In this document: positions 9,461-62,911 of the stretch, in pieces
Numbering within the stretch: the first letter of the stretch is position 1
Layout: each line of letters opens with the position of its first letter
Assembly: GCF_003991155.1 (NCBI RefSeq)
Contig: NZ_CP031294.1
Source of the DNA: Escherichia coli
GTDB lineage: Bacteria; Pseudomonadota; Gammaproteobacteria; Enterobacterales; Enterobacteriaceae
DNA: 64,000 nucleotides
Strand: one strand, 5' to 3'
Translations under genes and position numbers: made by a program
Notes under the pieces: model-generated
The model's database searches: none
Seen by the model: the letters and a program-made list of their open reading frames with translations, nothing else
Told to the model about the DNA's origin: nothing

Positions 9461-9553
9461 GTTGAATATGCTCCTTGATTTGGCGGGTTATCCTTGCCCG
9501 CCATTAAGTAAATACTTACCTATTTTTACCGATATAAAATTTTTTTTCCACCA

Positions 9554-22925: not shown

Positions 22926-22945
22926 TAGTAAGTATATACTTACTA
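22926..22945. promoter_or_regulatory. perfect palindrome TAGTAAGTATATACTTACTA upstream of the major tail gene
   Basis: Read directly. Same family as the copy at 62923. Confidence 0.55.
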
Positions 22946-29941: not shown

Positions 29942-31198
29942 CTATCGAGAACCACCAAGAATAACACGGTTTTTGACTGGATACCTACGATGTACTGGAT
30001 AGCCCAATGCGTCTGCACTATGCTCAATGCCACCTGTCTTATCCATATCTCGTGTTCCAGGCTTGTAGATGACTTTTTCCAGTGAATCAATCAAATGCTT
30101 GCACTTCGGATCGATATACAGCCGGATATCTCCAGATGCGGTCATCAGCATTCGGTTAACAGCATTAACACGATCCGCAATTGGCGGGTGCTTTTTCGAA
30201 TAATCGACACGTAAGAATCCCTTCTCTTTGAATATGTCGACGTCAGACTCCCCGCGAGCATGTTGGCGATAAGCACCTGCCGGATCTGGAAATACCGTTA
30301 TCTGTGATTTCCAGCGCCAGAAGCGTCTCTCAAGCTCATCACAAACCTCTGCCGTGTTAGAGGAAAAGAGCACCAATTCATCAATTGCCCATAGCTCACC
30401 ATTTGGCTGAGGTTGCAAAATTACTGAAGACATCGGGTCAATGTTGAAGTCCTGCCCTACCCATATAGGCAACCGAGGGTTGAACTGAAGCGGTTTTACA
30501 TGCACGTTACGATCGAACGGGTAGTAAACGCGCCCGGACATGTTCTCAAAGCTCGCCAGGTACTCCTGAGCGAACGATTTCGGGTCCATATCGTTCTTAG
30601 CAGCTTCAATTTCCGCCGTAGGTACAAACGGAGAATCGGCAGTTACAAACTGCCAGCTCTTCCACTGTCCCTTTCTTTGCAGCTCTACGTTCTGGCCTAT
30701 AGTCCACAGTTTGTGAAATTCCGAGAAGCCTTTTGGCGTACCAATGATCAGTGCACCGCCGCGTGTCGATGAAAGAGTAGGTCGTAACACCTTGTACCAG
30801 GTGTCAGCCTTCATATCCTGAAATTCATCAAGCACTACAAAATGCAACGCTACGCCGCGCAGAGTGTCAGGCTTATCAGCACCTTTGAGGGCGATCTCCG
30901 AACCGTTCTTCAACACGATTGTCATCGTGGTGTCGTTCTTTTTCCTAACCCACTTACGAGGCAGAACTTCCTGTAGATCGTCCCACAAAATCTGGCGAGC
31001 CATCTGGTAAGTAGGAGCGACATACCAGACTCTTTGCTTTTTTTCCTTTGCCGCCGCACGAATAATAGTGGAGATCGACAACCGGGATTTTCCCCAGCGT
31101 CGACCAGCACAAACAACTTTAAATCGATGCGGAGACTGGAAGACTTTCATCTGTCCAGAATGCAGTTGCACAAGACTGAGCGAGGACGGGATTGCCAT
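29942..31198 (-). CDS. terminase large subunit
   Basis: The 418-aa product has an N-terminal ATPase region (…GRRWGKSRLS…, a Walker A-like GKS, and …VLDEFQDM…, a Walker B-like hhhhDE) and a C-terminal acidic nuclease-like region. It is coupled to the upstream small subunit by ATGA overlap. Confidence 0.8.
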   Translation of the reverse strand: MAIPSSLSLVQLHSGQMKVFQSPHRFKVVCAGRRWGKSRLSISTIIRAAAKEKKQRVWYVAPTYQMARQILWDDLQEVLPRKWVRKKNDTTMTIVLKNGSEIALKGADKPDTLRGVALHFVVLDEFQDMKADTWYKVLRPTLSSTRGGALIIGTPKGFSEFHKLWTIGQNVELQRKGQWKSWQFVTADSPFVPTAEIEAAKNDMDPKSFAQEYLASFENMSGRVYYPFDRNVHVKPLQFNPRLPIWVGQDFNIDPMSSVILQPQPNGELWAIDELVLFSSNTAEVCDELERRFWRWKSQITVFPDPAGAYRQHARGESDVDIFKEKGFLRVDYSKKHPPIADRVNAVNRMLMTASGDIRLYIDPKCKHLIDSLEKVIYKPGTRDMDKTGGIEHSADALGYPVHRRYPVKNRVILGGSR

Positions 31199-31830
31199 TA
31201 TTCGTCCTCCCCTTCACTTCCATCATCTGTCGCATCAAATTCGCTTAGAGCTTCTTCTTCCAACGTCTCAAGCAATTCGTCATCGATGATTTCAGGCTCG
31301 TCGTCTTCCTGACGTAATTTCGCCACCTGGGAAGGCGTAAGCTCACCAAATACCAGGTTCGGAATTTCTTCCTCGTCATTTTCCGCATGATCCATGCCCA
31401 ATGCTTTGGACGAAACTTCAAAGCATTTTGCAAGGGTATTACTGGCTCTCTGTAAGCTCTTGAGAGAATCCTCAATCGCCCCTAAAGGCTTACCCTCACG
31501 TTTGGCCGTAGTGACTTCGACCATCACCATCTGCCCCAACGCATACGCCCAGCCGTCATAACGTGTACGACGTTCTTCTATCTTTTCCGCACGGGCTTTA
31601 GCGCGAAGCTCTGCGTCAGATTTAAGAGACTCACGAACCATCTTCCCAACAGAGTCCGCGCCTTTCTCTAATCCTCGCTTTTTGAAATGTCTGGAGAGTG
31701 TTTCACGACGAATGCCGTACTCTTCCTCCAGCTTTGAGAGTGTATATTCGCCTGACGTCCATTTGGCTTCAGCTTCGGCCCACTCCGCTGGTGTCAGGCG
31801 AGTTTTTACCTCGTCTTTTTCGACCGTCAT
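31198..31830 (-). CDS. terminase small subunit candidate (N-terminal HTH)
   Basis: The 210-aa product has an N-terminal helix-turn-helix-like region LSKLEEEYGIRRETLSRHFKKRG and an acidic C-terminus. It lies immediately upstream of the large subunit. Confidence 0.55.
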   Translation of the reverse strand: MTVEKDEVKTRLTPAEWAEAEAKWTSGEYTLSKLEEEYGIRRETLSRHFKKRGLEKGADSVGKMVRESLKSDAELRAKARAEKIEERRTRYDGWAYALGQMVMVEVTTAKREGKPLGAIEDSLKSLQRASNTLAKCFEVSSKALGMDHAENDEEEIPNLVFGELTPSQVAKLRQEDDEPEIIDDELLETLEEEALSEFDATDDGSEGEDE

Positions 31831-31966
31831 AGATCCCTCTAAAACACACAGAGCGCGTCCATGCGCTCTAAAACAACTTGTTTACTGCATCTGCTAACCA
31901 ACTTGTTTTCTGGGGTGTTTAATTAGGTCTGGCATGTCTTACGAAGCCTGCTTCCGTATATATTTA

Positions 31967-31981
31967 ATAAGTTACTTATTA
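31967..31981. promoter_or_regulatory. perfect palindrome AATAAGTTACTTATT upstream of the terminase genes
   Basis: Read directly, in the AT-rich gap between the 88-aa gene and the small terminase gene. Confidence 0.45.
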
Positions 31982-32025
31982 TTTATATATACAGATGCAG
32001 GTCTTTAAATAAGCTCCCAGACCGA

Positions 32026-32292
32026 TTACATCACCAGTAACTTCGCTTTGGCTCGACCTAAAGTGGTTAACCCAAGAGTCCGGCGGTGATAGCGATTGTC
32101 ACTGCGTTGGCGCGTATGCCCTTTCTCCACCAGCCCCTTTTTTATCAGAGCGCGAATTGAGAACTGGATACTTTGCTTGGTTGTCTTGTACGGCAAAACT
32201 TCAAGCAATTCGTCCAGGTCAAGTAGATGACCTCGCTCATAACCGAGATTGAGCGTTTTGATGATGTCCTTTTGTTTGTCGGTTAACGTCAT
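32026..32292 (-). CDS. small winged-helix DNA-binding protein candidate
   Basis: The 88-aa product contains ...TTKQSIQFSIRALIKKGLVEKGHTRQ... (wHTH-like). It lies between the ParB-like operon and the terminase genes. Confidence 0.35.
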   Translation of the reverse strand: MTLTDKQKDIIKTLNLGYERGHLLDLDELLEVLPYKTTKQSIQFSIRALIKKGLVEKGHTRQRSDNRYHRRTLGLTTLGRAKAKLLVM

Positions 32293-32301
32293 GGCAAATC
32301 C

Positions 32302-33192
32302 TTATGCCGGTAAAGCAATTTCTAACGGTTTATCCAAAGGTTGTTTGTCGAATGCCAGCAGTGGCAGCGTGTCAGGCAGTCGACGGCCAAAGTCAGGGTT
32401 TCGGTACACACCATACAACGGAGACGTAAAGCTCAGGTTGTGAATGTCCTTGAGCAGCTTCACAATGCTGGCCTCGTCCACCAGACTGTCGGCAATGTCC
32501 TGAATCGTCGTGCCACGATTCCGCCCAGCTTTTGCCAGGGAACTGTTCTTATGGTAGTCCGCCACCAAATCGCGCAGCGCACGGCGACGACGAGACTCGC
32601 TCATAGCGAACAACTCTTTGACGATCGCCTCGTTATCACCCGGGTCGGAGCGGAAATGGCGCTGGAACACACGCAGTGCACTTTCATAGCTCTTCGGTCG
32701 CTCAGGGCGGATGAACTTAAACCCTGCTTTCATGGCGAAGGGATTGTATTTGCTCATCGAGGACTGGATCTCAATGATTGGCCGGTCATGCATCCTGCTA
32801 ACCAGGTTAATCATTCTATAAGAGACGCCTACGCCACGATACTGAGTATCCACAACTGAGCGACTGATCACCGCAAAGTTGTTATTCACGTACCGACCCC
32901 AGTACTGGTTAGCCACGGTGGTATTAGTGGTTGGTTTCAACTTAGGAAACATGCGGTGGCGAGGTGCCAACAGTAGTTTCGGGTAAGCCATAACCACGAC
33001 GCCCACCAGACGGTCATCAAGTTCGCAGCGATAGTAAGTTGGCGCGAAAGGTTTGCCGTCTGTTTTGTAGTGAAGCGACTTAAGAGCGTGCCAGTCCTCT
33101 ACAGTTCCCTTTGTAACAGTCATTCGCTCCAGAAAGTCCAGATGACGCGGAAACTCTTCAGGGCGGTAGCGTTTAATGATGATGTCCGTCAT
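32302..33192 (-). CDS. hypothetical protein (296 aa), cotranscribed with the ParB-like and ATPase genes
   Basis: ORF only. Overlap-coupled with the upstream ATPase gene. Confidence 0.4.
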   Translation of the reverse strand: MTDIIIKRYRPEEFPRHLDFLERMTVTKGTVEDWHALKSLHYKTDGKPFAPTYYRCELDDRLVGVVVMAYPKLLLAPRHRMFPKLKPTTNTTVANQYWGRYVNNNFAVISRSVVDTQYRGVGVSYRMINLVSRMHDRPIIEIQSSMSKYNPFAMKAGFKFIRPERPKSYESALRVFQRHFRSDPGDNEAIVKELFAMSESRRRRALRDLVADYHKNSSLAKAGRNRGTTIQDIADSLVDEASIVKLLKDIHNLSFTSPLYGVYRNPDFGRRLPDTLPLLAFDKQPLDKPLEIALPA

Positions 33193-33854
33193 GAATGGAC
33201 CTCATCATGACTACCATTGTGATATTCCACCTTCACGCGTTCTTTGTAGTGCTTGGTGATCTGCATATCAGGGCGCAGCGCGTTCTTCAGGTCTTCGTGA
33301 GTCGTCGCCACCATTACCGTCGCACCAACCTTTCGAGCGGCACGCTGGAGGTTAGACGCCACAACCTGAGCGGTTACACGGTCGAGAACAGCGCCGAACT
33401 CGTCAGCAGCCCATACTTTAGCGCCTGACTCAATCAGTTTGGCAATCTTGAGACGATATTTCTGGCCGTCTGACATTTCAGAAGGCTTGCGAACAAACAG
33501 ATATGCATCGTTCAGACCAGCCATAGATAACAACCCAAGCGCATCACTGGTCGTTTTGCCCAACTGATCGATGACGTTAACCTCATTATCGAAGGTAAAA
33601 TCATCGATGGAGGCTACAGACAGCCCTTCATCCTTCATCTGTCGTTGCAACTCGCGCAGCACAACGGATTTGCCGGAACCGGATTGGCCGGTGATGTACA
33701 CCACATCGCCCTGCTTCACTTCCAGCTCCAGATTGTCGTAAAGCGTCCACTCTTTTTCGTCCAGGCCAAGCCCGAACGACTCAGCGATTTCCAACGTGCG
33801 CGTGGTTTTATTTACGCGTGTCTGAAACGATACGTTGATGATGTATTTGCTCAT
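33189..33854 (-). CDS. ABC-type ATPase (Walker A GQSGSGKS, signature-like SDGQK, Walker B VWAADEFGAVLD)
   Basis: Motifs read directly from the translation. Confidence 0.6.
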   Translation of the reverse strand: MSKYIINVSFQTRVNKTTRTLEIAESFGLGLDEKEWTLYDNLELEVKQGDVVYITGQSGSGKSVVLRELQRQMKDEGLSVASIDDFTFDNEVNVIDQLGKTTSDALGLLSMAGLNDAYLFVRKPSEMSDGQKYRLKIAKLIESGAKVWAADEFGAVLDRVTAQVVASNLQRAARKVGATVMVATTHEDLKNALRPDMQITKHYKERVKVEYHNGSHDEVHS

Positions 33855-34552
33855 GCAGCCATCTCCCCGGAAGAGATCTTCTCCGCATATGCCACAAATG
33901 CGTCTACCCCGCTTTCTCCCGTCATTTCTTCCATATGGGCAAGCAAATCACCAACAACAATGGCAGAGCCAGCAGGGAGCGTTTTAAAGCCCAATACGTC
34001 GACAACACGTACTTCTTCCGCTGCAACTTCACGACTGATCTCGGTGTGTTCATCCTTCTGTCGTTTAGTTTCTTCGCCAAGATCGATAACTAGCGAGTCG
34101 GTGTCCATTTCTTCTGTCATACTGCCAACGAGAACATTCAACTCACGCTCTTCAAAGCCGAAAACCTCGATATCGTCCAGAACAAGCGACTCAAGCTCTT
34201 TCTGTAGCTTAATTGCATCGTAATCAATGCTGGCAAGTCGGTTATCTTCAAGGCGCTTCGCACGAACCTCGTCATCACTGAGATCATCGCGAACAATAAC
34301 CGGTACGCGCTCAAGTCCAGCAAAAATTGCAGCCTCACGGCGGCCGTGGCCAGTAATAATTACGTCGTTCTTATCGACCGTAATTGGCTGGTCAAATCCG
34401 CGCTTTTTAATGGCTGCGGCTAGATCTCGGATCTGCTGTTCATCATGCTTTTTGGCATTCATCTCATAGGGAATAAGATCTGCCGGGTCGCGATATACGA
34501 TTTCAAACTTTTTGGTCATTACATACGCTCCTTGTAGTAGTCGACCAGCCAC
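33851..34552 (-). CDS. ParB-like nuclease-domain protein
   Basis: The N-terminal region ...DLIPYEMNAKKHDEQQIRDLAAAIKKRGFDQPITVDKNDVIITGHGRREAAIFAGLERVPVIV carries the ParB/Srx-fold GxxRxxA motif. Confidence 0.6.
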   Translation of the reverse strand: MAGRLLQGAYVMTKKFEIVYRDPADLIPYEMNAKKHDEQQIRDLAAAIKKRGFDQPITVDKNDVIITGHGRREAAIFAGLERVPVIVRDDLSDDEVRAKRLEDNRLASIDYDAIKLQKELESLVLDDIEVFGFEERELNVLVGSMTEEMDTDSLVIDLGEETKRQKDEHTEISREVAAEEVRVVDVLGFKTLPAGSAIVVGDLLAHMEEMTGESGVDAFVAYAEKISSGEMAA

Positions 34553-35217
34553 ACCAGAGCCTCACCAGCGTTCTCCATTTCATTACCGGTGTTAATAGCC
34601 TGCTCTTTGATGATGTTTTTTATGGTTTCTGCAACACGATCTGACGCATCGAAAGTTACTTTGAAGCGCATGGTCTGATGTTCCGCACCCACACGTTCGG
34701 TTTTCTCTCGTTTGTCGGTATCGACAGGCTCATCACTACCACGAGACAACGCCTCCAGTGCTTCAAGGTCGATTGCCGCCTCTTTTGCTAAAACCATCGA
34801 GATTTCGTCGTCATACGGAGCGATTTCAGACAGTTGATAGTCAAGTTCTGACTGAATTTCTTCAATGAAGCGTTGCAATGCGATTTGGTCGTCTTCACCG
34901 TATCGCTCGTTGTCCACCAGTGACATCTGTTTAGCTACGACATCGCTAATTTTGCCCACAGAAAGCACCGGAACCGTTGAAATTCCTTGCTCAATAGCAG
35001 CACGCCAGCGATGTTCGCCGCCGAGGATTTCAAAAAATCCATCTTCAAGTTCACGAGCCAAAATTGGCTTAAAAAAGCCCAATTTTTCGATAGAACCTTT
35101 CAGTTTTTCAAAATTCTGCGCACCAACCGAATTGGTGTTCCAGGTATTCGGGCGAAGGTTGGCAACATCAACCTGCAAAATCGTGATTTTTACATCCATT
35201 TTATTGCTACAATCCAC
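34519..35217 (-). CDS. ParB-like nuclease-domain protein (second paralogue)
   Basis: ...FKPILARELEDGFFEILGGEHRWRAAIEQGISTVPVLSV shows the same motif class as the downstream gene. Confidence 0.6.
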   Translation of the reverse strand: MDCSNKMDVKITILQVDVANLRPNTWNTNSVGAQNFEKLKGSIEKLGFFKPILARELEDGFFEILGGEHRWRAAIEQGISTVPVLSVGKISDVVAKQMSLVDNERYGEDDQIALQRFIEEIQSELDYQLSEIAPYDDEISMVLAKEAAIDLEALEALSRGSDEPVDTDKREKTERVGAEHQTMRFKVTFDASDRVAETIKNIIKEQAINTGNEMENAGEALVWLVDYYKERM

Positions 35218-35281
35218 TAAGTAATCACTTACTTATTATAATAGCCAAATAACATACAAAAGGCACTAAGGAAAGAGGTTT

Positions 35282-36841
35282 ATGACTGTTCGGATTGTAT
35301 CTAACGCAGTAAATGCGCTTATTTCTGGCGCAGATGACAAGGTAAAGCAACTGGTGCAGCAAATGTTGAGCTACGAAGTCGAGACTGGCGACTGGAAGGG
35401 CACAAGCACGATGTTCAACTGGAGTAAAAACTCGTTCCCTGCTGGCTTTGCCAAGCCTGTAGCGGCGAACTTGAACAAGGCGGGCATCAAATGTGTTCAT
35501 ATCCGCAAAGACAAAGCCCCGGCGCTTGGTAAACCAAATCCTGCGGTTAACCCATTCCCATACAATCCTGATTATGCGTATCAGGATCAGACTGTGGAAA
35601 CACTGGTTCGAGAGGGAATGATGATTGCGCAGATCGCTACTGGTGGCGGGAAATCTAACGTTGCCTGCAAAGCAGCTGCACGTATCGGTCGAATGACATT
35701 ATTTTTAACAACCCGCTCTGTTCTGATGTTTCAAATGGCCGAAAACTTCCAGAGATCCATCGACTACCGCGCCGAAAATGGCGAACCGTGGTTAAAAGAC
35801 CAAAAGGTTGGAGTCATTGGCTCGGGTGAGTTCCAGGTATCACGACATATCAACGTCGCTACAGTTCAAACTCTTGCAAGTTTCCTCGAAGAACCACCAC
35901 GCGATGCAACACCAGATAAGAAAAGCTACCACCTCAAACGTCGGGAGTTGGTGAAACGCTTCCTTTCAAGTGTCTCTCTTCTTATTCTGGAAGAGGCGCA
36001 TGAGTCTTCAGGCTCAAATTTCTATGACATCGCCAGATTATGTGTGAACGCAGACTATCGTCTGGCGCTTACAGCCACGCCGTTCATGAAGGATTCGACG
36101 GAAGCCAACATGCGCCTGATGGCGGTGGCCGGGCGAATTGAAATTAAAGTCACAGAAAAGTACCTGATTGATCGAGGCATTCTGGCAAAGCCGTACTTCC
36201 TTTATCATAAAGTTGCCTACAAGCCAGACGAGGCCAGAATCAAGGCCGAACTTGCCAACAAACACCTCAATTTTAGAGTTGGTATGAGCACCGCCTACCA
36301 AAAGGCTTATCAGTTGGGGATCGTGTATAATTTGGGACGTAACGAGGCCATAGTGCGCGAGGCATTGCTTTATAAGCAACATTCACTCAACTGCATGACT
36401 CTGGTTCGTCTTAAACGCCACGGGCAAATCCTGATGGAGATGATGAAGGAGTCAGGTCTTAAAGTTGATTTCATCTATGGGGAATCTAACCAGACGACAA
36501 GGCAAGCAAAGCTGAATAGTTTAGCGTCTGGTGAAATAGATGTTTTAATAGGCTCGACTATTCTGGATGTTGGTGTTGATGTGCCAAGCGTTGGTGCGGT
36601 CATTCTTGCTGGTGGTGGGAAAGCAGAAGTTGAAATGAGACAGCGTGTCGGTCGTGGCTTACGAGCCAAAAAAAATCAGGCAAACGTGTGTTTTATCACC
36701 GATTTCATTGACATTAGCAACAAATACCTGTTGTCTCACTCTTATGAGCGAAAACACATCATCGACACCACACCTGGCTTTGCAGAAGGTGTATTGCCTA
36801 TTGATGGAGCATTCGATTTTGGAGTTCTGAAACGAGATTAG
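35282..36841 (+). CDS. DEAD/DEAH-box superfamily-2 helicase
   Basis: Walker A ATGGGKSNVA, DEAH-like LILEEAHE, SAT-like LTATP and C-terminal helicase motifs. AGGAAAGAGG RBS. Divergent from the ParB operon. Confidence 0.8.
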   Translation: MTVRIVSNAVNALISGADDKVKQLVQQMLSYEVETGDWKGTSTMFNWSKNSFPAGFAKPVAANLNKAGIKCVHIRKDKAPALGKPNPAVNPFPYNPDYAYQDQTVETLVREGMMIAQIATGGGKSNVACKAAARIGRMTLFLTTRSVLMFQMAENFQRSIDYRAENGEPWLKDQKVGVIGSGEFQVSRHINVATVQTLASFLEEPPRDATPDKKSYHLKRRELVKRFLSSVSLLILEEAHESSGSNFYDIARLCVNADYRLALTATPFMKDSTEANMRLMAVAGRIEIKVTEKYLIDRGILAKPYFLYHKVAYKPDEARIKAELANKHLNFRVGMSTAYQKAYQLGIVYNLGRNEAIVREALLYKQHSLNCMTLVRLKRHGQILMEMMKESGLKVDFIYGESNQTTRQAKLNSLASGEIDVLIGSTILDVGVDVPSVGAVILAGGGKAEVEMRQRVGRGLRAKKNQANVCFITDFIDISNKYLLSHSYERKHIIDTTPGFAEGVLPIDGAFDFGVLKRD

Positions 36842-42698: not shown

Positions 42699-42827
42699 CA
42701 TTTCACTCTCCGTAGTGTTTTGGTTATTTTTATATTCTATGATCGTAAGTATGTACTTACAATACAAAAAAGCCCCGTAAGGATGGCGGGGCTGTCGTAC
42801 TGTCGACTAATTACCACTTGCACATTA

Positions 42828-46336: not shown

Positions 46337-46417
46337 GGTTTGTTAAAGTCAGAAGGGGTTGTGTCTATATGAAAATGCCCAGCGTGTTGCCGGGCATTGC
46401 GAACAGAGGTTGTTTAA

Positions 46418-48451
46418 TTACTTAACCTGGTGGCCTGGTTTAGCACCAGCATCCGGGCTTAACAGGAAGATATCTTTCCCGCCGGGGCCAGCAGCCATCA
46501 CCATGCCTTCGGAGATACCGAAGCGCATTTTACGCGGAGCCAGGTTAGCCACCATAATGGTGTGACGACCAATCAGTGCCTGTGGGTCTGGATAAGCAGA
46601 ACGGATGCCTGAGAAGACATTACGCTTTTCACCACCGAGATCCAGTGTCAGACGCAGCAGTTTGTCAGAACCTTCGACAAACTCCGCGTTTTCAATCAGC
46701 GCCACACGCAGGTCAACTTTGGCGAAGTCGTCAAAGGTGATGGTTTCCTGAATCGGGTCGTCAGCCAGTGGGCCAGTTACCGGTGCAGCTGTGGCTTTCA
46801 CTTCTTCTTTGGATGCTTCCACCAGTGCTTCCACCTGTTTCATATCGATACGGTTATACAATGCCTTGAACGGATTCACTTTATGGCCCAGCAGCGGTTG
46901 CTGGATACCATCCCAGGTCAGTTCTGTATTCAGGAATGCTTCTGCACGTTCAGTCAGTTTCGGCAGTACCGGTTTCAAGTACGTCATCAGCACGCGGAAC
47001 AGGTTAATGCCCATAGAGCAAATCGCCTGCAGATCGGCATCGCGTCCTTCCTGCTTCGCCACCACCCACGGAGCCTGTTCATCGACATATCGGTTAGCCA
47101 GGTCAGCCAATGCCATGATTTCACGGATAGCTTTACCAAATTCGCGGCTTTCCCATGCTTCGCCAATCACTTCAGCGGCATCAGTAAAGGTTTTGTACAG
47201 TTGCGGGTCAGCCAGTTCGCTTGCCAGCACGCCGTCAAAACGCTTGTTGATAAAGCCTGCATTACGGGAGGCCAGGTTAACCACTTTGTTCACGATATCG
47301 GCATTCACGCGCTGAACGAAATCCTCCAGGTTGAGATCGATATCATCAATGCGCGAAGAGAGTTTCGCAGTGTAGTAGTAACGCAGGCTGTCGGCGTCAA
47401 AATGATTCAGCCAGGTGCTGGCTTTAATAAAGGTGCCGCGAGACTTGGACATCTTCGCGCCGTTCACCGTCACATAGCCGTGAACAAACAGGTTGGTCGG
47501 CTTGCGGAAGTTGCTGCCTTCCAGCATGGCAGGCCAGAACAGGCTGTGGAAGTAAACAATATCTTTACCGATGAAGTGGTACAGCTCGGCTGTGGAGTCT
47601 TTCTTCCAGTATTCATCGAAGCTGGTGGTATCGCCGCGCTTGTCGCACAGATTCTTGAAGGAACCCATGTAGCCAATCGGCGCGTCCAGCCAGACGTAGA
47701 AATATTTGCCCGGCGCGTTCGGAATTTCAAAACCGAAGTAAGGCGCATCGCGGGAGATATCCCACTGTTGCAGGCCGGATTCAAACCACTCCTGCATTTT
47801 GTTCGCCACCTGCTCCTGCAACGCACCGCTGCGGGTCCATGCCTGCAACATTTCGCTGAAAGAGGGCAGATCAAAGAAGAAGTGTTCGGAATCACGCATT
47901 ACCGGGGTAGCGCCAGAAACCACCGATTTCGGCTCGATCAATTCAGTCGGGCTATATGTTGCGCCGCAGACTTCACAGTTATCGCCGTATTGATCTGGCG
48001 CTTTACATTTCGGGCAGGTGCCTTTCACAAAACGATCCGGCAGGAACATGCCTTTTTCCGGGTCGTACAACTGAGAGATAGTGCGGTTTTTAATAAAACC
48101 GTTCTCTTTCAGGCGAGTATAGATAAGCTCAGACAGCTGGCGGTTCTCTTCGCTGTGCGTCGAGTGATAGTTGTCATAGCTGATGTTAAAGCCTGCGAAA
48201 TCAGTCTGGTGTTCCTGACTCATTTCGCCAATCATCTGCTCCGGTGTGATACCAAGCTGCTGTGCTTTCAGCATGATCGGCGTACCGTGGGCATCGTCGG
48301 CACAGATGAAATTAACCTCGTGGCCGCGCATTCGCTGGTAACGAACCCAGACATCAGCCTGGATGTGCTCCAGCATATGGCCGAGGTGGATTGAGCCGTT
48401 AGCGTACGGCAGCGCGCACGTCACCAGAATTTTCTTCGCGACTTGGGTCAT
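46418..48451 (-). CDS. metG: methionyl-tRNA synthetase
   Basis: Translation from [35 protein letters not shown]... carries the class I HIGH motif and KMSKS (…GAKMSKSRG…). The full-length product is 677 aa with a C-terminal tRNA-binding domain. A terminator hairpin follows the stop. Confidence 0.95.
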
Positions 48452-48608
48452 AGTAGGCATTACTTCTTTGTAGTGAAAAGGGGCTTGATAGTAACAAAAT
48501 GGCCTTATGTCTGCCATGTGATAACAGCATTTCTCATAAATGATTAAATGTCGTAGCTGGAGTACACTACAAGGCGACAATTGCGCAAATTAAAATAAAG
48601 GAGACGGG

Positions 48609-49709
48609 ATGAGCGAGTCCAAATCGCCGGATGCCCTGAGAGCAATGGTAGCCGGTACGCTGGCTAATTTTCAGCACCCAACCCTGAAACACAACCTGAC
48701 TACGCTTAAAGCGTTACACCATGTTGCGTTGATGGATGACACACTGCATGTCGAACTAATCATGCCTTTCGTGTGGAATAAGCCTTTTGAAGACCTGAAA
48801 GAGCAATGTAGTGGTGATCTGCTCCGTATCACTGGCGCAAAGGCTATTGACTGGAAGCTGTCGTACAACATTGCCACGCTTAAGCGCGTCAAAAACCAAC
48901 CAGGCATTAATGGCGTTAAGAACATTATCGCCGTCAGCTCAGGCAAGGGCGGCGTGGGTAAATCCTCCACGGCGGTAAACCTGGCACTGGCGTTGGCTGC
49001 TGAAGGTGCGAAAGTTGGTATTTTGGATGCCGATATCTATGGTCCATCAATTCCAACCATGCTGGGCGCGGAAAACCAACGTCCAACCTCACCTGACGGT
49101 ACTCACATGGCACCTATCATGTCTCATGGCCTGGCAACCAACTCTATTGGTTATCTGGTCACCGACGACAATGCAATGGTGTGGCGTGGACCGATGGCCA
49201 GCAAGGCGCTGATGCAGATGTTGCAGGAAACTCTATGGCCTGATCTGGACTATCTCGTTCTCGATATGCCGCCGGGCACTGGTGATATTCAGTTGACGCT
49301 GGCGCAGAACATTCCTGTAACTGGTGCGGTTGTGGTAACTACGCCGCAAGACATCGCGCTGATCGATGCGAAGAAAGGCATTGTGATGTTCGAAAAAGTC
49401 GAAGTGCCGGTACTGGGTATCGTCGAAAACATGAGTGTGCATATTTGCAGTAACTGCGGTCATCACGAGCCAATTTTTGGCACCGGTGGCGCACAGAAAC
49501 TGGCCGAGAAATACAACACGCAGTTGTTAGGCCAAATGCCACTTCATATCTCTCTTCGTGAAGATCTGGATAACGGAACACCAACCGTTATTAGTCGTCC
49601 AGATAGCGAATTTACGGCTATTTATCGTGACCTCGCAGATCGCGTTGCCGCCCAAATGTATTGGCAAGGTGAAGTAATACCTGGCGAAATCGCATTCCGC
49701 GCAGTGTGA
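48609..49709 (+). CDS. mrp: Mrp/ApbC Fe-S cluster carrier ATPase
   Basis: MSESKSPDALRAM... The P-loop reads VSSGKGGVGKSSTAVNLA. The CxxC pair reads CSNCGHHEP. Divergent from metG with a 157-bp intergenic region. A terminator hairpin follows. Confidence 0.93.
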   Translation: MSESKSPDALRAMVAGTLANFQHPTLKHNLTTLKALHHVALMDDTLHVELIMPFVWNKPFEDLKEQCSGDLLRITGAKAIDWKLSYNIATLKRVKNQPGINGVKNIIAVSSGKGGVGKSSTAVNLALALAAEGAKVGILDADIYGPSIPTMLGAENQRPTSPDGTHMAPIMSHGLATNSIGYLVTDDNAMVWRGPMASKALMQMLQETLWPDLDYLVLDMPPGTGDIQLTLAQNIPVTGAVVVTTPQDIALIDAKKGIVMFEKVEVPVLGIVENMSVHICSNCGHHEPIFGTGGAQKLAEKYNTQLLGQMPLHISLREDLDNGTPTVISRPDSEFTAIYRDLADRVAAQMYWQGEVIPGEIAFRAV

Positions 49710-49745
49710 TAAAAGGCGGTGCATTGCACCGCCTAATCAGTTCTC

Positions 49746-50135
49746 CTACATCACGGGACAATCATCAAACTCGCCACTTCTTGCGTCGTTGATAATGTGA
49801 GTGATCACACCAAACACGGCATTGCTGCCCGTGCATCCATCGTCATCCTTTGGCAATGCTTCCTTCTTACCGGTTCTTAAATCCTCCAGATGCTGACGTG
49901 GGTACTTCCGGTATCTTTTTACGCGATATTCCCCATCCAGAGCGCATACAAGCAGAGAACCATCAACCGGGGTAAGTGAGGAATCGACCACCAGCAATGC
50001 ACCCTGTAATATTCCCTCACGATGATGACTATCAGCTGCCCTCATGAAGTAGGTCGCTGAAGGATGTCTAATTATCTGCTGATCAAGAGAAATACGGCTC
50101 TCAGCATAATCCGCCGCAGGAGAAGGGAAGCCCAT
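49746..50135 (-). CDS. UmuD/LexA-like S24 peptidase-domain protein (orphan, no umuC partner in the window)
   Basis: The 129-aa product has a C-terminal S24-like domain ...DGSLLVCALDGEYRVKRYRKYP.... A LexA box lies 19 bp upstream. Confidence 0.65.
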   Translation of the reverse strand: MGFPSPAADYAESRISLDQQIIRHPSATYFMRAADSHHREGILQGALLVVDSSLTPVDGSLLVCALDGEYRVKRYRKYPRQHLEDLRTGKKEALPKDDDGCTGSNAVFGVITHIINDARSGEFDDCPVM

Positions 50136-50153
50136 AGCGTTTTCACCTCAGAG

Positions 50154-50173
50154 TACTGTTTATCCATACAGTA
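50154..50173. promoter_or_regulatory. LexA (SOS) box TACTGTTTATCCATACAGTA
   Basis: Perfect CTGT-N8-ACAG with TA flanks, read directly at 50154-50173. Confidence 0.8.
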
Positions 50174-50233
50174 TACATTAAAGATGCTTGAAGTGTGCAA
50201 TAGCGCGATGCTTTGCGCTCGTCTGGTGGCGCG

Positions 50234-50485
50234 TTATTTTTTGGCTATATCTTCTTTCTGATATACCGGATCGTTTCCTTTTGGCAGCAGGAGGCTTAAC
50301 TGCCGGTAGTGCCGTAGCCGTTCCATGAAATAGGTGCGCAGGTTCTCAGGTTGCTCACGGGCTACCTGTTCCGCTATGACGGGTATGTTCAATCGCTCTT
50401 TGTAGGCAACCCCCCTGGCAGCCAGGTCAACGTTAACTTTATTCCTTTCTTCCTGGCTTTTGGCTGCTATGTTCCAGTTGCTCAT
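50234..50485 (-). CDS. hypothetical protein (83 aa)
   Basis: ORF adjacent to the next small ORF. No motif. Confidence 0.4.
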
Positions 50486-50487
50486 GT

Positions 50488-50676
50488 TTAAGGCTCACAT
50501 TTCCAGATGGTATTCTGAACACCCGTACCAGGCGCAAGATGAGGGTTAGCGTTCGCGCTATGCAGATATACAGCTTTAGACTTTCCGTATTGCTGACAGG
50601 CTTTATCTGCGTTTTTTGGCAGGCTATCCAAGCCAATACCAGCCATCGAACTGGATGCTAACCTTTTCACCGTCAT
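50488..50676 (-). CDS. hypothetical small protein (about 62 aa)
   Basis: Weak. Start chosen at MTVKRL. Confidence 0.25.
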
Positions 50677-50837
50677 TGTATTGCACCATCGCACACCCAG
50701 ACATAGCTAAAATCGCACCGACAATACCGCTTTTCCAAAAAGCTCTAATTAGGTCATTCGTTACCTAATGTCCGAACTGCTAAAGCATCCAAGTTGCTGT
50801 AGAATCACATCCAATTACTTAAACCTGAAATAAGTGG

Positions 50838-52396
50838 ATGAAAATGACAAGTATTCAACAACGTGCAGAGCTTCATCGCCAGATCTGGCAAATTGCTAAC
50901 GATGTCAGGGGTTCAGTCGATGGATGGGATTTTAAGCAGTACGTTTTGGGCGCGCTTTTTTACCGTTTTATCAGCGAAAATTTTTCCAGTTATATTGAAG
51001 CCGGTGATGACAGTATCTGTTATGCGAAACTGGATGACAGCGTAATTACTGATGACATTAAAGACGATGCCATCAAAACTAAAGGCTACTTCATCTACCC
51101 CAGTCAGCTTTTCTGCAACGTAGCTGCGAAAGCAAATACTAATGACAGACTGAATGCAGATTTAAACAGCATCTTCGTTGCTATCGAAAGTTCTGCTTAC
51201 GGTTATCCTTCAGAAGCTGACATCAAAGGTTTGTTTGCTGATTTCGATACCACCAGTAACCGCCTGGGTAACACCGTTAAAGATAAAAATGCCCGCTTGG
51301 CTGCGGTTCTGAAAGGGGTTGAAGGGCTAAAACTTGGTGACTTCCATGAACATCAGATTGACCTGTTCGGTGACGCCTATGAGTTCCTGATTTCTAACTA
51401 TGCGGCGAATGCCGGTAAGTCCGGCGGCGAGTTCTTTACACCGCAGCACGTCTCTAAGCTGATTGCACAACTGGCTATGCACGGGCAGACCCACGTTAAC
51501 AAAATCTACGACCCGGCAGCAGGCTCCGGTTCGCTGTTGTTGCAGGCGAAAAAACAGTTTGATGACCATATCATCGAAGAAGGTTTTTTTGGTCAGGAAA
51601 TCAACCATACGACCTATAACCTGGCGCGTATGAACATGTTTTTGCACAACATCAACTACGACAAGTTTGATATCAAGCTGGGTAATACACTGACTGAGCC
51701 GCACTTCAGAGATGAAAAACCGTTTGATGCCATCGTTTCTAACCCGCCGTATTCGGTGAAATGGATTGGCAGCGATGACCCGACGCTGATTAACGATGAA
51801 CGTTTTGCCCCGGCTGGCGTTCTGGCCCCCAAATCCAAAGCTGACTTTGCGTTTGTATTACATGCGCTGAACTATCTTTCGGCCAAAGGTCGCGCTGCGA
51901 TTGTCTGCTTCCCAGGCATTTTTTACCGTGGCGGCGCGGAGCAGAAAATCCGTCAGTATCTGGTCGACAATAACTATGTCGAAACCGTGATTTCACTGGC
52001 ACCGAATCTGTTCTTTGGCACCACTATTGCCGTCAATATTCTGGTGCTGTCTAAACATAAAACGGATACCAAAGTTCAGTTTATTGATGCCAGCGAACTG
52101 TTCAAAAAAGAGACTAACAACAACATTCTGACCGATGCTCATATCGAACAGATTATGCAGGTATTTGCCAGCAAGGAAGATGTTGCTCATCTGGCGAAAT
52201 CTGTTGCGTTTGAGACTGTTGTCGCGAATGACTATAACCTGTCGGTGAGCAGCTATGTGGAAGCGAAAGATACTCGCGAAATTATCGATATCGCTGAGCT
52301 GAATGCTGAGCTGAAAACCACGGTCAGCAAAATCGACCAGTTGCGTAAAGATATTGATGCGATTGTTGCTGAGATTGAAGGTAGCGAGGTACAGGC

Positions 52397-52400
<4 letters not shown>
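50838..52400 (+). CDS. hsdM: type I restriction-modification methyltransferase subunit HsdM (type IC, EcoR124-family)
   Basis: [25 protein letters not shown]... An AdoMet-binding region and a catalytic SNPPYSVKW (NPPY) motif are present. The stop overlaps the hsdS start. Confidence 0.9.
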
Positions 52401-53656
<1,256 letters not shown>

Positions 53657-53777
53657 TTGACCATTGCTACCGACCGGATCACCTTAACATCCGGTCTATA
53701 TAGAGACTATTTTTTACACGCCGGAAGTCGCCCTTAAAGCCCTTCCGGCCCTTGCCAGACGGCACAAAGGATGCGCT

Positions 53778-56700: not shown

Positions 56701-56894
56701 ATGAAGAGGCGGCGAAACGCTATATTCGCACGTCTTTAAAACGCGAATACGCCACCGAAAATGGCACAGAATTAAACGAGACATTACCAAAACTTAGTCC
56801 GTTAAACCCGCAATATAAAACGAAAAAACAGACCGTTTTCCAGAAAATCGTCACGTTTATTGAAAAGTTCAAAGGAGTAGGTGGGCAGATATAG
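53778..56894 (+). CDS. hsdR: type I restriction enzyme endonuclease/translocase subunit HsdR
   Basis: The 1038-aa product has an SF2 helicase Walker A …TGSGKT…, a DEAH/DECH-like …[16 protein letters not shown]… and helicase C-terminal motifs. It lies 122 bp after hsdS. Confidence 0.9.
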
Positions 56895-56952
56895 TGTATT
56901 AATCTGAACCAGATCTGGCAGACATCTGTGCAAATTGCAGATAGCTGTCAGA

Positions 56953-62155: not shown

Positions 62156-62317
62156 AAAATCGATTTTAAAGCGTCTGGGAAGGGGTTCTAGTGGATTCTG
62201 TAGTGGTGTTCAGGTCTGGGAGTCTCTGATATAAAACAGCCTGCTTCCGTATATTAATAATTAATATGTAGTTATTTATATATACAGAAGCAGGCTAATT
62301 ACAGACGCCAGAACAAA

Positions 62318-62911
62318 CTAAGCAGCCTTCTTTGATGGTCTTTTTTTCCTGATCACATTCGCAGGATCATACCCTCCCAGACTTTTCATGACGTCCAAAG
62401 GGATCTTGCTTATAGAGTGCCCAGCGTCCTGACAGAATCCTCGAAAAACAACGAGCATACTGCCACCGGGGTTGATGTTTACTTCTACCTGACCCAAATT
62501 GACGTCAGGCTCGACAAACGCTACGCGGCCACCAGACAGAATAATCGTCTCATTCGCACACTCTGTTGCACGCTCATACCACTTTGTATCGAGGGATTGA
62601 GGAATTAGCATCACTGTTGTAACTCCGCGAGCCTGCTCACGTATAGCCGCATCAATCCAGGGGGAGATTTTGGAGTAGGGTGGATTGAGGAAGGCAATTG
62701 TACCTGGCTGTCCCCATTCAGATTTCAAAGCATCACGCTCAACGCCTATGAAATTAGGCAGCTTCGCATTGTCCTTGTTGCAGGCAACGTCAACATCAAA
62801 TGTCACTCCAAGATAACGTTGAATGGCAGAAAACAGCCAGTCAGGTGTTCTCCAGAGGTCACGAAGAGAGTTGTCGCGCTTTCGCTGTTTGATTTTTTCG
62901 GCTGCAATCAT
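62318..62911 (-). CDS. phage-type DNA N6-adenine methyltransferase (Dam family)
   Basis: The 197-aa product carries the catalytic motif IAFLNPPYS (NPPY) in the arrangement typical of small phage Dam methyltransferases. N-terminal …WRTPDWLFSAIQRYLG… motif. Confidence 0.75.
   Translation of the reverse strand: MIAAEKIKQRKRDNSLRDLWRTPDWLFSAIQRYLGVTFDVDVACNKDNAKLPNFIGVERDALKSEWGQPGTIAFLNPPYSKISPWIDAAIREQARGVTTVMLIPQSLDTKWYERATECANETIILSGGRVAFVEPDVNLGQVEVNINPGGSMLVVFRGFCQDAGHSISKIPLDVMKSLGGYDPANVIRKKRPSKKAA

Follow-up and report, generated by a model that had tools for sequence, protein, structure and literature searches.

Gene content and organization of the locus

The window, a stretch of 64,000 nucleotides, belongs to an Escherichia coli phage-plasmid of the SSU5/pHCM2/pMT1 type. 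All five genes that the initial annotation had listed upstream of the terminase genes are found both in the sequence itself and in the PGAP annotation of a 100%-identical plasmid (NZ_OW849379.1) (Table 1). That annotation rightly set the block outside the canonical head module; its count of five omitted an 88-aa gene that lies in the same block. The minus-strand genes for ParB-2, ParB-1, the ABC ATPase and the GNAT protein overlap stop to start by 1-4 nt each and therefore form one operon, with the 88-aa gene starting 9 nt past the end of the 296-aa gene and a 195-bp gap separating the end of the block from TerS. The block sits between a divergent UvsW-like helicase gene and TerS/TerL. Across 28 of 28 genome loci, and likewise in the examined phage loci, gene order is conserved at 32-64% protein identity, and an arrangement kept at such divergence in every locus examined is not a product of chance.

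Table 1. Features of the block and its flanks (window coordinates).
Feature	Position	Strand	Details
TerL gene	29942-31198	-	Pfam Terminase_6N/Terminase_3
TerS-like gene	31198-31830	-	phrog_867
55-bp near-perfect palindrome	31947-32001		inverted repeats I8 + I14
88-aa gene, last of block	32026-32292	-	phrog_900, E 2e-45
296-aa gene (GNAT)	32302-33192	-	296 aa
ABC ATPase gene	33189-33854	-	221 aa; Pfam ABC_tran 50.1 bits
ParB-1 gene	33851-34519	-	222 aa; Pfam ParB_N 35.0 bits
ParB-2 gene	34519-35199	-	226 aa from PGAP start; Pfam ParB_N 49.9 bits
Promoter-like TATAAT with abutting palindrome	35219-35240	-	read from sequence
UvsW-like SF2 helicase gene	35282-36841	+	Pfam ResIII/DEAD/Helicase_C

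The helicase, with a weak UvsW_N match in relatives, had been counted as part of the arrangement. It is indeed a conserved neighbor, syntenic in all SSU5-supergroup loci, but the synteny is limited to that supergroup. As the independent ParB/ABC-GNAT/terminase neighborhoods of Gordonia, Leptospira, Streptococcus and Pasteurella lack the helicase, we treat it as a neighbor and not as an established component.

The ABC ATPase, GNAT and 88-aa proteins

Whereas attention had initially centered on the ParB-like proteins, the catalytic core of the block comprises the ABC ATPase and the 296-aa protein. The latter, previously listed as unknown, is confidently assigned as a GNAT-fold acyltransferase on its fold and acyl-CoA motif (Q117-Y-R-G-V-G122), and carries a helical insertion or extension of roughly 100 aa. 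The ABC ATPase (phrog_293) is a soluble, single nucleotide-binding domain with no permease partner and with intact Walker A (GQSGSGKS), signature (SDGQ), Walker B (DE) and H-loop motifs; it is 52-64% identical across the SSU5 supergroup, a level of conservation equal to that of TerL. Its homologues include the N-terminal half of fused ABC-GNAT proteins and also Axumite gp2 (BLASTP 5e-16), and a profile of the 296-aa family matches many proteins of 440-560 aa in which ABC_tran lies N-terminal to the GNAT region, in the order seen here. These comparisons show the two proteins to be the halves of a polypeptide that is single (ABC-GNAT) in many other viruses. The 88-aa protein, the gene for which is present in 14 related loci, is possibly a small winged-helix DNA-binding protein, with weak Sta1/Lrs14 wHTH matches and a match to the C-terminal part of a PADLOC CARF model.

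The two ParB-like proteins

ParB-1 and ParB-2 both join just one recognized domain, the nucleotide-binding ParB/Srx N-domain fold, to non-canonical tails, and sequence matches to Spo0J, ParB and Noc in the PDB have E values of 1e-5 to 1e-9. The "nuclease domain" attributed to them is only an old Pfam name, and nuclease activity is unsupported. In ParB-2, the longest ORF of which extends to 35217, beyond the PGAP start, an acidic disordered linker connects the N-domain to a confidently assigned C-terminal beta-alpha-alpha domain, which could serve in dimerization or DNA binding. ParB-1 (phrog_930) has the invariant residues GHGR (G57-R60), R89, N93 and D101 and a nearly invariant NAKxH motif. 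Its residues 12-165 match phrog_498 "DNA methyltransferase" (E 5e-32), it matches the PADLOC MTase_II model (E 2.7e-17), and it aligns with the ParB-like protein of Pasteurella Pmp13 (hhalign 99.8%) and with Gordonia Axumite gp1 (hhalign 96.5%). ParB modules of the ParB-1 type form the N-terminal part of phage ParB-methyltransferase fusions, and it is this type that partners ABC-GNAT in other phage lineages.

The genes are named parB or parB-like and placed among plasmid functions in databases and papers, both proteins retain the arginine motif of the ParB N-domain, and the C-terminal domain of ParB-2 may dimerize, all of which would suit a second ParABS-like partition system for the plasmid-prophage state. 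Against this, profile searches detected neither HTH_ParB nor ParB_C in either protein, both fall below the TIGR00180 cutoff (43 bits against 58.45), direct reading of the two N-termini revealed no LG[KR]GL ParA-interaction motif, and repeat analysis found no parS array. The neighboring ATPase is of the ABC type and no ParA gene adjoins the ParB pair; a ParA-type ATPase with MipZ/CbiA/ParA matches (1609-2277, minus strand) and its 119-aa partner (1250-1609, minus strand) lie about 30 kb away. Moreover, phages deposited as ordinary linear or circular genomes (nickie, RHEph10-like and others) and integrated copies conserve the block just as well, and it lies by the terminases of small lambdoid, firmicute and actinobacterial phages. 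We consider a partition role highly improbable, in agreement with the original view that the block is not simply a partition system and that the ParA pair lies elsewhere. A C-terminal dimerization or HTH domain together with parS sites had been named as signs of such a system; ParB-2 does have a C-terminal domain, but it is neither a ParB HTH nor a ParB C-domain, and no parS accompanies it.

Promoter, palindromes and record ends

The GTAAGT palindrome reported for the divergent promoter region is present as AAGTAATCACTTACTT at 35219-35234. On the minus strand, TATAAT (35240-35235) is followed directly 3' by the palindrome AAGTAAGTGATTACTT (35234-35219), together about 20-40 nt upstream of the ParB-2 start, and the palindrome is kept in pMT1, Xenorhabdus and Morganella relatives despite diverged flanks. 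The window has further palindromes of the related form GTAAGTA-N2-4-TACTTAC at positions 9506, 22930 and 42747 and a variant form at 31966; matches number 5, against 0.55 expected, and similar palindromes lie upstream of the tail-fiber and major-tail genes. This shared palindrome is the sole basis on which we infer late timing for the block.

Between the 88-aa gene and TerS lies the 55-bp palindrome, a candidate packaging or regulatory site; Y. pestis pMT1 and L012 retain its outer arms (CCTGCTTCC/GGAAGCAGG). The 11-mer TTACTTATTAT has only two exact copies in the window, one in the ParB-2 promoter and one upstream of TerS, in this palindrome. SSU5 and Cyrano each have a linear GenBank record that begins inside the 55-bp palindrome (window 31964|31965), although these ends may be assembly or annotation conventions.

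Recurrence in other phages

A ParB-1-type gene followed by ABC-GNAT and then terminase recurs in at least five unrelated phage lineages. This order is found in Pasteurella Pmp13, Leptospira LE4, S. pyogenes prophage 315.4, where an ASCH gene is also present, and Gordonia Axumite, where Formyl_trans_N accompanies ABC-GNAT. ASCH proteins hydrolyze N4-acylcytosines (PMC6972931). Formyltransferase partners occur in three other lineages and are absent at the SSU5-type locus. In 34 of 77 metagenomic viral loci, the ABC-GNAT gene shows translational coupling to that for TerL; elsewhere it is fused to family-B DNA polymerase, or lies beside it, within a Prim-Pol/RecA/Mre11/SMC replication module. In Burkholderia phiE255 (Bcepmuvirus), ABC-GNAT and a formyltransferase follow the tail-fiber genes, the position that mom occupies in Mu; ABC-GNAT of the Porphyromonas phages likewise follows tail-fiber genes, in both cases far from terminase. 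A ParB is no obligatory partner, as many ABC-GNAT loci lack one within 8 kb.

The gp1 ParB-like proteins of Sourvirus are 56-64% identical, yet the cassettes downstream differ: that of Sour, a 7-deazaguanine cassette, is annotated with a queuine tRNA-ribosyltransferase (DpdA-like), QueC-, QueD- and QueE-like proteins and GTP cyclohydrolase, that of CaiB has TET/JBP, an amino-acid:DNA transferase (ADDT) and a kinase (PMC9302106), and that of Axumite is the ABC-GNAT with Formyl_trans_N. Comparison of gene content shows that, in Gordonia Sourvirus, orthologous ParB genes head interchangeable cassettes for known base modifications in one slot.

These neighborhoods bear on the possibility that the ParBs, with the 88-aa putative winged-helix protein, bind the palindromic region by the genome end and aid TerS/TerL in its recognition or processing, ABC-GNAT being an ATP-driven terminase cofactor and not an enzyme that modifies DNA. 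Placement just before terminase in at least five lineages, the coupling to TerL in another, the TerL-like conservation of the ABC ATPase, and the conserved 55-bp palindrome, with its shared 11-mer and the record starts within it, are all consistent with this. However, those starts may be conventional, no packaging role is known for any GNAT whose acyl-CoA motif is intact, and ABC-GNAT is fused to PolB in replication modules and lies far from terminase in phiE255 and the Porphyromonas phages. The Sourvirus slot, moreover, holds bona fide base-modification pathways, which makes proximity to terminase a general habit of late modification cassettes. A packaging accessory appears quite unlikely.

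A proposed model for the cassette

Among the three options originally offered, comparative genomics favors DNA modification over packaging-site recognition and anti-defense. The function had been called open, which is so only in part: a specific computational prediction for ABC-GNAT has existed since 2013 (Iyer et al., as cited in PMC7824862), and its exemplar, pT24, was matched by our fused ABC-GNAT query. We found no demonstration of ABC-GNAT activity for any family member in the accessible literature, and no published mention of base modification or of resistance to restriction in the DNA of SSU5-type phages, the genomes of which have been sequenced routinely. We propose, with moderate confidence, that the block is a late, ParB-assisted, ATP-dependent DNA acylation system, its chemistry and target being predicted from gene content and homology.

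In this model, ParB-2, ParB-1, the ABC ATPase, the GNAT and possibly the 88-aa protein would make up a lytic-cycle DNA-modification cassette. The ABC domain would dimerize with ATP, engage or clamp DNA and present a base, in parallel with the ATPase of TmcA/NAT10 in RNA cytidine acetylation and with DNA-scanning ABC ATPases such as UvrA and Rad50, and the GNAT would transfer an acyl group from acyl-CoA to an exocyclic amine of that base in replicated phage DNA. The ParBs, perhaps as a heterodimer joined through C-terminal beta-alpha-alpha domains, may open double-stranded DNA or load onto it, activating or retaining the enzyme, much as a phage thymine dioxygenase acting on dsDNA depends on a ParB-like activator (PMC13229309). 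Phage ParB-CTPase folds are often fused to DNA methyltransferases and can bind ATP, GTP or CTP (PMC12704722). Expression from a promoter with the palindrome common to the tail and terminase operons would place modification just before packaging, and virion DNA could then be protected in the next host from restriction or other DNA-targeting defenses.

ATPase plus GNAT is also the architecture of the tRNA ac4C enzyme TmcA, and ABC-GNAT might instead acetylate a host or phage protein, tRNA or other RNA, or a small molecule (a nucleotide signal or polyamine) in host take-over or anti-defense, with NTP-dependent regulation by the ParBs. RNA polymerase is a substrate of phage GNATs such as Rac (PMC7824862), ASCH proteins remove ac4C from tRNA (bioRxiv 10.64898/2026.02.27.708502), Rhizobium phages carry accessory genes (e.g. 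DUF2829) inside the block, and the element encodes metG, with tRNA genes nearby in relatives. Conversely, the recurrent partners are DNA-linked (ParB, PolB, terminase), ABC-GNAT swaps with DNA-modification cassettes in Sourvirus, a PADLOC/anti-defense family search of the block gave no matches, and the core set is conserved like structural genes, unlike the usually variable anti-defense genes. We regard a non-DNA target as unlikely.

Comparison with known systems

The ParBs share with ParABS ParB (Spo0J/Noc; TIGR00180) an N-terminal ParB/Srx fold of the CTPase type, and differ in lacking an HTH, a ParB C-domain, a ParA partner and a parS array and in their late-gene context. Phage ParB-DNA methyltransferase fusions (phrog_498; PADLOC MTase_II) resemble ParB-1 in their N-terminal module; ParB-1, however, is free-standing, with no methyltransferase domain, and is coupled to a different enzyme. 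TmcA/NAT10 is an ATP-dependent RNA cytidine N4-acetyltransferase that likewise couples an NTPase module to a GNAT, with a nucleobase amine as the presumed shared target, but its ATPase is of the helicase type and not ABC; we draw an analogy and claim no homology. Membership of the Mom family (Mu; a GNAT fold that makes N6-carbamoylmethyl-adenine) was rejected: similarity at the sequence level is absent, the best structural match is a protein other than Mom, and Mom has neither an ATPase nor a ParB partner.

A further comparison is with ParB-dependent phage DNA-modification cassettes, namely the 5mYOX/TET-JBP thymine dioxygenase with its ParB activator (O'Toole et al., PNAS 2026, PMC13229309) and the left-arm cassettes of Gordonia Sourvirus. 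There too the leading gene of a translationally coupled operon, set just ahead of terminase, is ParB-like and has no canonical DNA-binding domain, and Sourvirus gp1 is homologous to both ParB-1 (96.5%) and ParB-2 (93.8%). The SSU5-type block differs in having ABC-GNAT in place of dioxygenase or transglycosylase, in having two ParBs, and in that both keep the G-x-x-R arginine missing from Sourvirus gp1 (GNHT).

The fused ABC-ATPase-GNAT proteins of viruses and prokaryotes (COG2401/"MK0520"-type; e.g. Tenacibaculum phage pT24), for which the prediction of DNA-base acylation cited above was made (Iyer, Zhang, Burroughs & Aravind, NAR 2013), form the remaining comparison. Although the block encodes the enzyme in two overlapping genes, with two ParB paralogues before and the 88-aa gene after them, and the formyltransferase partner is missing, both halves are homologous in the same N-to-C order and share the invariant Walker and signature residues and the H-Y, R..G, E and Y residues of the GNAT.

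Results

The 5.4-kb region containing the block is 100% identical to E. coli plasmid NZ_OW849379.1, 98–99% identical to Escherichia phages CMS-2020a, PhiR41_1 and Cyrano, and 83% identical to Salmonella phage SSU5, and on the strength of these plasmid and phage identities we assign the element to the SSU5/pHCM2/pMT1 type of phage-plasmid. Related copies, nearly unchanged, occur in at least 792 sequenced plasmids of enterobacteria, among them Klebsiella, Escherichia, Enterobacter, Yersinia (the Y. pestis locus being our L009), Salmonella and other genera. The two ParB paralogues, ABC ATPase, 296-aa ORF and divergent helicase of the initial annotation all lie where it had put them; the 88-aa gene that completes the block had been left out. 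Each of the four larger minus-strand genes overlaps with its start the stop of the gene before, and a 195-bp gap separates the 88-aa gene from TerS, which is followed by TerL and portal. Since every block protein falls into a large PHROG (886, 293, 930, 723 and 900), the block represents a standard phage module rather than an oddity of one element.

Elsewhere the element carries metG, apbC, a complete type I restriction-modification system (hsdM/S/R) and a phage N6-adenine methyltransferase; with these it already owns one or more DNA-modification functions of a conventional kind. An inverted repeat of 21 nt (90% complementary), with one arm in the ParB-1 coding sequence and the other in that of the helicase, may be a product of chance.

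Features of the block and its surroundings (window coordinates)
Feature	Position	Strand	Remark
ParB-2	34519-35199	minus	ORF check
ParB-1	33851-34519	minus	ORF check
ABC ATPase	33189-33854	minus	ORF check
296-aa ORF (GNAT)	32302-33192	minus	ORF check
88-aa gene	32026-32292	minus	9 nt after 296-aa ORF
Helicase	35282-36841		divergent from block; ResIII/DEAD/Helicase_C
55-bp near-perfect palindrome CCTGCTTCCGTATATAT...ATATATACAGATGCAGG	31947-32001		centre 31973; between 88-aa gene and TerS
GC-rich hairpin, then TGTGTTTTAG	31849-31870	minus	~10 nt ahead of TerS ribosome-binding site
Two copies of AA(A/C)CAACTTGTTT(A/T)CTG	31871-31887, 31896-31912		25 bp apart
GTAAGTA-N2-4-TACTTAC palindromes	9506-9517, 22930-22941, 42747-42758; also 35219-35234, 31966-31980		intergenic, upstream of minus-strand genes
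21-nt inverted repeat	33961-33981, 35433-35453		arms in ParB-1 and helicase coding sequences
ParA-type ATPase gene	1609-2277		with small partner
metG, apbC, hsdM/S/R, N6-adenine methyltransferase	about 46400-56900 and 62300-62900		plasmid 78418-88882 and 94299-94892

The ABC ATPase matches ABC_tran at 50.1 bits, with readable Walker A, signature, Walker B and H-loop motifs. We rejected an ABC transporter, as there is no permease and the protein is a single soluble nucleotide-binding domain that is fused to a GNAT domain elsewhere. Sequence searches of Pfam, NCBIfam, PADLOC and the PDB gave no match for the 296-aa protein, and the informative searches were those based on structure and on PHROG and other profiles. 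Its AlphaFold model, built from a 49-sequence alignment, is confident (pLDDT 88.3, pTM 0.80) and presents a GNAT fold with a Q/R-x-x-G-x-G/A acyl-CoA loop (Q117-Y-R-G-V-G122, of which R119 and G122 are invariant), encoded C-terminal to the ABC domain. Relatives elsewhere already bear the name 'ABC-type ATPase with predicted acetyltransferase domain'.

A family profile run against 1.8 billion representative proteins recovered 960 relatives, many of them proteins of 440–560 aa in which ABC_tran forms the N-terminal part and the GNAT region the C-terminal part, the order of the two overlapping genes in the window. Matches to fused proteins (440–1260 aa) had E-values of 1e-15 to 1e-28, and the fused query P0163 in turn retrieved both SSU5-type loci and Tenacibaculum phage pT24. 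The ABC motifs are invariant across the fused family together with GNAT residues H41/Y42, R111, R119/G122, E141 and Y260, and these GNAT residues are likewise invariant in the split form. These sequence comparisons indicate that the ABC and GNAT proteins of the window are the split form of one enzyme. Larger fusions add a family-B DNA polymerase (P0176 and P0202, at loci L040 and L080), a TFIIB repeat or an intein; in the fused protein P0164 a Hint/LAGLIDADG intein sits within the ABC domain.

Both ParB-like proteins exceed the Pfam cutoff of 26.3 bits for ParB_N (PF02195), with 35.0 bits for ParB-1 and 49.9 bits for ParB-2, and this is the sole Pfam domain found in either. They show the alpha+beta ParB/Srx fold and the conserved GxxR arginine motif of the putative active site or NTP pocket, which reads GHGR (invariant) in ParB-1, where NAKxH and DN are also kept, and GGEHR in ParB-2, where H63 and R64 are invariant and DNxRYGxDD is kept; the DN(x)R box downstream of GxxR is conserved in the ParBs. 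ParB-1 is similar to the ParB part at the N-terminus of phage proteins in which ParB is fused to a methyltransferase (phrog_498, E 5e-32; PADLOC MTase_II, E 2.7e-17). A first homologue search with ParB-2 returned near-identical Klebsiella and E. coli variants alone, and a profile search supplied the usable alignment. In the resulting model (pLDDT 82.5) the ParB/Srx domain is followed by three weaker helices and by an acidic linker that is disordered, and the C-terminus is a confidently modeled module of an extended strand and two helices (beta-alpha-alpha). One idea is that the tail may serve as an RHH-type dimerization or DNA-binding module; another idea is that ParB-1 and ParB-2 form a heterodimer.

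The initial annotation had set the block apart from a second partition system, and this distinction holds. Neither ParB matches the HTH domain PF17762 or the C-terminal dimerization domain PF23552 in Pfam; the ParB-2 region corresponding to the HTH is acidic and modeled with low confidence, and the protein ends instead in its unusual beta-alpha-alpha module. Against full-length TIGR00180 both proteins reach 43 bits, below the cutoff of 58.45, and the ParA-interaction motif LG[KR]GL is not visible on reading either N-terminus. There is no adjacent ParA, the ATPase beside the ParBs being ABC-type, and the ParA-type gene with its small partner lies ~30 kb from the block. Between 31700 and 37000 we found no tandem or multi-copy parS-like arrays, only single palindromes at two promoter regions. 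A partition system is therefore very unlikely.

The decisive comparative evidence comes from neighborhoods outside the SSU5-type lineage. Pasteurella phage Pmp13 (38.5 kb) encodes a ParB-like protein, which is an orthologue of ParB-1 (hhalign 99.8%), then an overlapping 366-aa ABC-GNAT, a small gene, TerS, TerL and portal. Leptospira phage LE4 has a ParB-like gene, ABC-GNAT, three small genes, TerL and portal, while S. pyogenes prophage 315.4 has ParB_N, ABC, a small ORF, ASCH, an uncharacterized ORF, TerL and portal; ASCH proteins act as amidohydrolases on N4-acylcytosine or erase ac4C (PMC6972931). At the left genome end of Gordonia phage Axumite, gp1 (ParB-like), gp2 (ABC-GNAT), gp3 (Formyl_trans_N) and gp4 (terminase) are joined by 4-bp overlaps throughout. 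Sister Sourvirus phages have an orthologous gp1 (56–64% identical), yet carry other cassettes behind it: in Sour, proteins annotated as queuine tRNA-ribosyltransferase, QueC-, QueD- and QueE-like proteins and GTP cyclohydrolase, which we read from their annotations as a putative 7-deazaguanine pathway, and in CaiB, TET/JBP, an amino-acid:DNA transferase, a kinase and an oxidoreductase, a type of cassette that constitutes a thymidine hypermodification pathway (PMC9302106). It follows from these swaps that ABC-GNAT and established DNA-base-modification cassettes can stand in for one another after the same ParB and in the same pre-terminase slot. Acetylation of a target other than DNA, whether protein, tRNA or a small molecule, is compatible with the GNAT fold considered alone, and we regard it as unlikely.

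ABC-GNAT also occurs in other settings. In Burkholderia phage phiE255 and in Porphyromonas phages it lies with a formyltransferase after the tail genes, and in one metagenomic lineage, with no detectable ParB, the fused protein is translationally coupled to TerL (34 of 77 loci); in another it is fused or adjacent to PolB inside a Prim-Pol/RecA/Mre11/SMC module. In 80 metagenomic loci with fused ABC-GNAT, ParB HMMs built from the SSU5 supergroup detected no ParB gene at distances up to 8 kb, so ParB is not a universal partner. Formyl_trans_N (PurN/Fmt-like) is a second recurrent partner, found directly behind ABC-GNAT in Gordonia, Porphyromonas and Burkholderia phages (L122 1805-2452, L127 5023-5496, L128 5044-5658) and absent from the SSU5-type cassette; this partner hints at further tailoring of the transferred group. 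Among the IMG/VR loci L037–L116, 16 of 77 viral contigs end inside or within 2 bp of the fused gene, and many more end within 1 kb downstream of it; these ends could be genome termini or a recurrent assembly break.

Within the SSU5-type lineage the wider order is helicase(-), ParB-2, ParB-1, ABC, zero to three small inserts, GNAT, the 88-aa gene where present, TerS, TerL and portal. It is unbroken in all 28 bacterial-genome loci retrieved by the GNAT profile, which span alpha-, beta- and gamma-proteobacteria and are mostly contigs of 96–118 kb with some chromosomal copies, and equally in Pseudomonas phage nickie and in Rhizobium, Stenotrophomonas and Xanthomonas phages. Measured against the window, ABC is 52–64% identical (equal to TerL), GNAT 37–45% and the ParBs 32–43%. 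This order is inherited synteny, which marks the genes as core and does not by itself establish that they work together. The junction between ABC and GNAT, empty in the window, is a variable insertion point that holds one to three small genes in other lineages, such as a DUF2829 protein in Rhizobium phages (L007 5043-5345, RHph_N1_15) and an 84-aa gene in SSU5 (101811-102065) and pMT1. In some relatives TerL is split by a ~1-kb insertion (L013 9947-12190, L018 about 9900-12525, L027 9892-12481), perhaps an intein or intron.

The palindrome noticed earlier in the divergent promoter region was found again and is conserved; the promoter region of ParB-2 carries TATAAT together with AAGTAAGTGATTACTT. 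Similar palindromes lie upstream of the tail-fiber, major-tail and TerS genes, and the exact 11-mer TTACTTATTAT occurs at 35229 and 31972 alone. A loose GTAAGTA-type pattern was observed five times (0.55 expected). These palindromes probably represent a shared operator or late-promoter element. The outer arms of the 55-bp palindrome are kept in Y. pestis pMT1 and in one further relative, and the linear GenBank records of SSU5 and Cyrano begin and end within it, at 31964|31965; possible readings of it are a cos/packaging site, a late promoter or operator, and a mere assembly break point. Together with the persistent link to terminase, this conserved palindrome within which both records open speaks for a packaging-accessory role of the block, which we consider quite unlikely. 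The hairpin ahead of TerS, whose stem is kept and whose loop varies in pMT1 and the related locus L012, looks like a terminator/attenuator separating the cassette from the terminase operon, or else like a 5' mRNA structure. The two neighboring repeat copies, each of which holds a small palindrome (AACAA-C-TTGTT), are conserved in pMT1, and they may be binding sites for TerS or the 88-aa protein.

Discussion

The module is real and strongly conserved. Of the functions considered, a ParB-assisted, ATP-dependent DNA acylation system is the most likely, and we give it about even chances. A defense system was rejected, since PADLOC gave weak generic ATPase/helicase matches alone and the context is one of phage late genes.

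Precedent for an enzyme of this kind comes from a phage thymine dioxygenase that requires a neighboring ParB-like protein specifically on double-stranded DNA; that ParB is without a DNA-binding domain, mutants of its NTP site stay active, and the dependence has been demonstrated for the pair 5mYOX176/ParB176 alone (PMC13229309). Phage ParB-CTPase folds are often fused to methyltransferases and can bind ATP, GTP or CTP (PMC12704722). By analogy, it is plausible that ParB-1, helped in the SSU5 lineage by ParB-2, would grant ABC-GNAT access to duplex phage DNA or retain it there. ATP-driven dimerization of the ABC domain would engage the DNA, and the GNAT domain would then move an acyl group onto a base amine. 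The resemblance of the ParB-2 promoter palindrome to those of the tail-fiber, major-tail and TerS genes would suggest late timing, and the putative pay-off is protection from restriction.

A more specific prediction, which we offer tentatively and as the less probable outcome, is that the virion DNA of SSU5/pHCM2/pMT1-type phage-plasmids, and of the many unrelated phages with pre-terminase ParB and ABC-GNAT, bears an undescribed N-acyl base (candidates are N4-acyl-cytosine and N6-acyl-adenine). This base would be installed after replication by the ATP-driven ABC-GNAT, delivered or activated by a heterodimeric ParB-1/ParB-2 clamp whose nucleation sites would be the palindromes beside the operon and the genome end. 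If true, phage DNA hypermodification with the help of ParB would gain a third class, new in its chemistry, and plasmids that are common in the clinic (in E. coli, Klebsiella, S. Typhi and Y. pestis) would carry it.

Genes of this block are routinely labeled 'parB' or 'ABC transporter' and counted as plasmid maintenance or transport, and a DNA-modification reading changes the way in which the gene content of phage-plasmids is sorted. The ABC-GNAT family extends over phages of at least five bacterial phyla, with a specific biochemical prediction dating from 2013: a passage of PMC7824862 that cites Iyer et al. 2013 describes ABC-GNAT as a predicted DNA acylation system and names Tenacibaculum phage pT24. 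Our literature search found no experimental study of ABC-GNAT activity, and nothing on COG2401 or on SSU5 ParB-like genes with terminase. The acylation prediction is open to a direct test, since SSU5, Cyrano and PhiR41_1 can be propagated on laboratory strains of Salmonella or E. coli. A positive outcome would bring a new DNA modification chemistry and would widen the emerging idea of ParB-fold proteins as general activators of phage DNA-modifying enzymes; a negative one would turn attention to a terminase-linked role.

Compared with known systems, the 296-aa protein resembles the Mom family, to which the momylation enzyme of phage Mu belongs, in the generic GNAT fold alone, with no specific relationship in sequence or structure beyond it. 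In layout, the window follows the ParB-led modification cassettes of Axumite, CaiB, Sour, LE4, 315.4 and Pmp13, with a ParB-like gene coupled through gene overlaps upstream of a modifying enzyme and ahead of terminase. The module is already known in kind, the ABC-GNAT core through the 2013 prediction as relayed in that passage and the ParB-led cassettes through their documentation. The SSU5-type version is a distinct variant, in that its enzyme is split, its two ParB paralogues have novel tails and a partner of 88 aa is present, and it sits, mis-annotated today as parB/ABC transporter, in experimentally tractable and clinically common elements.
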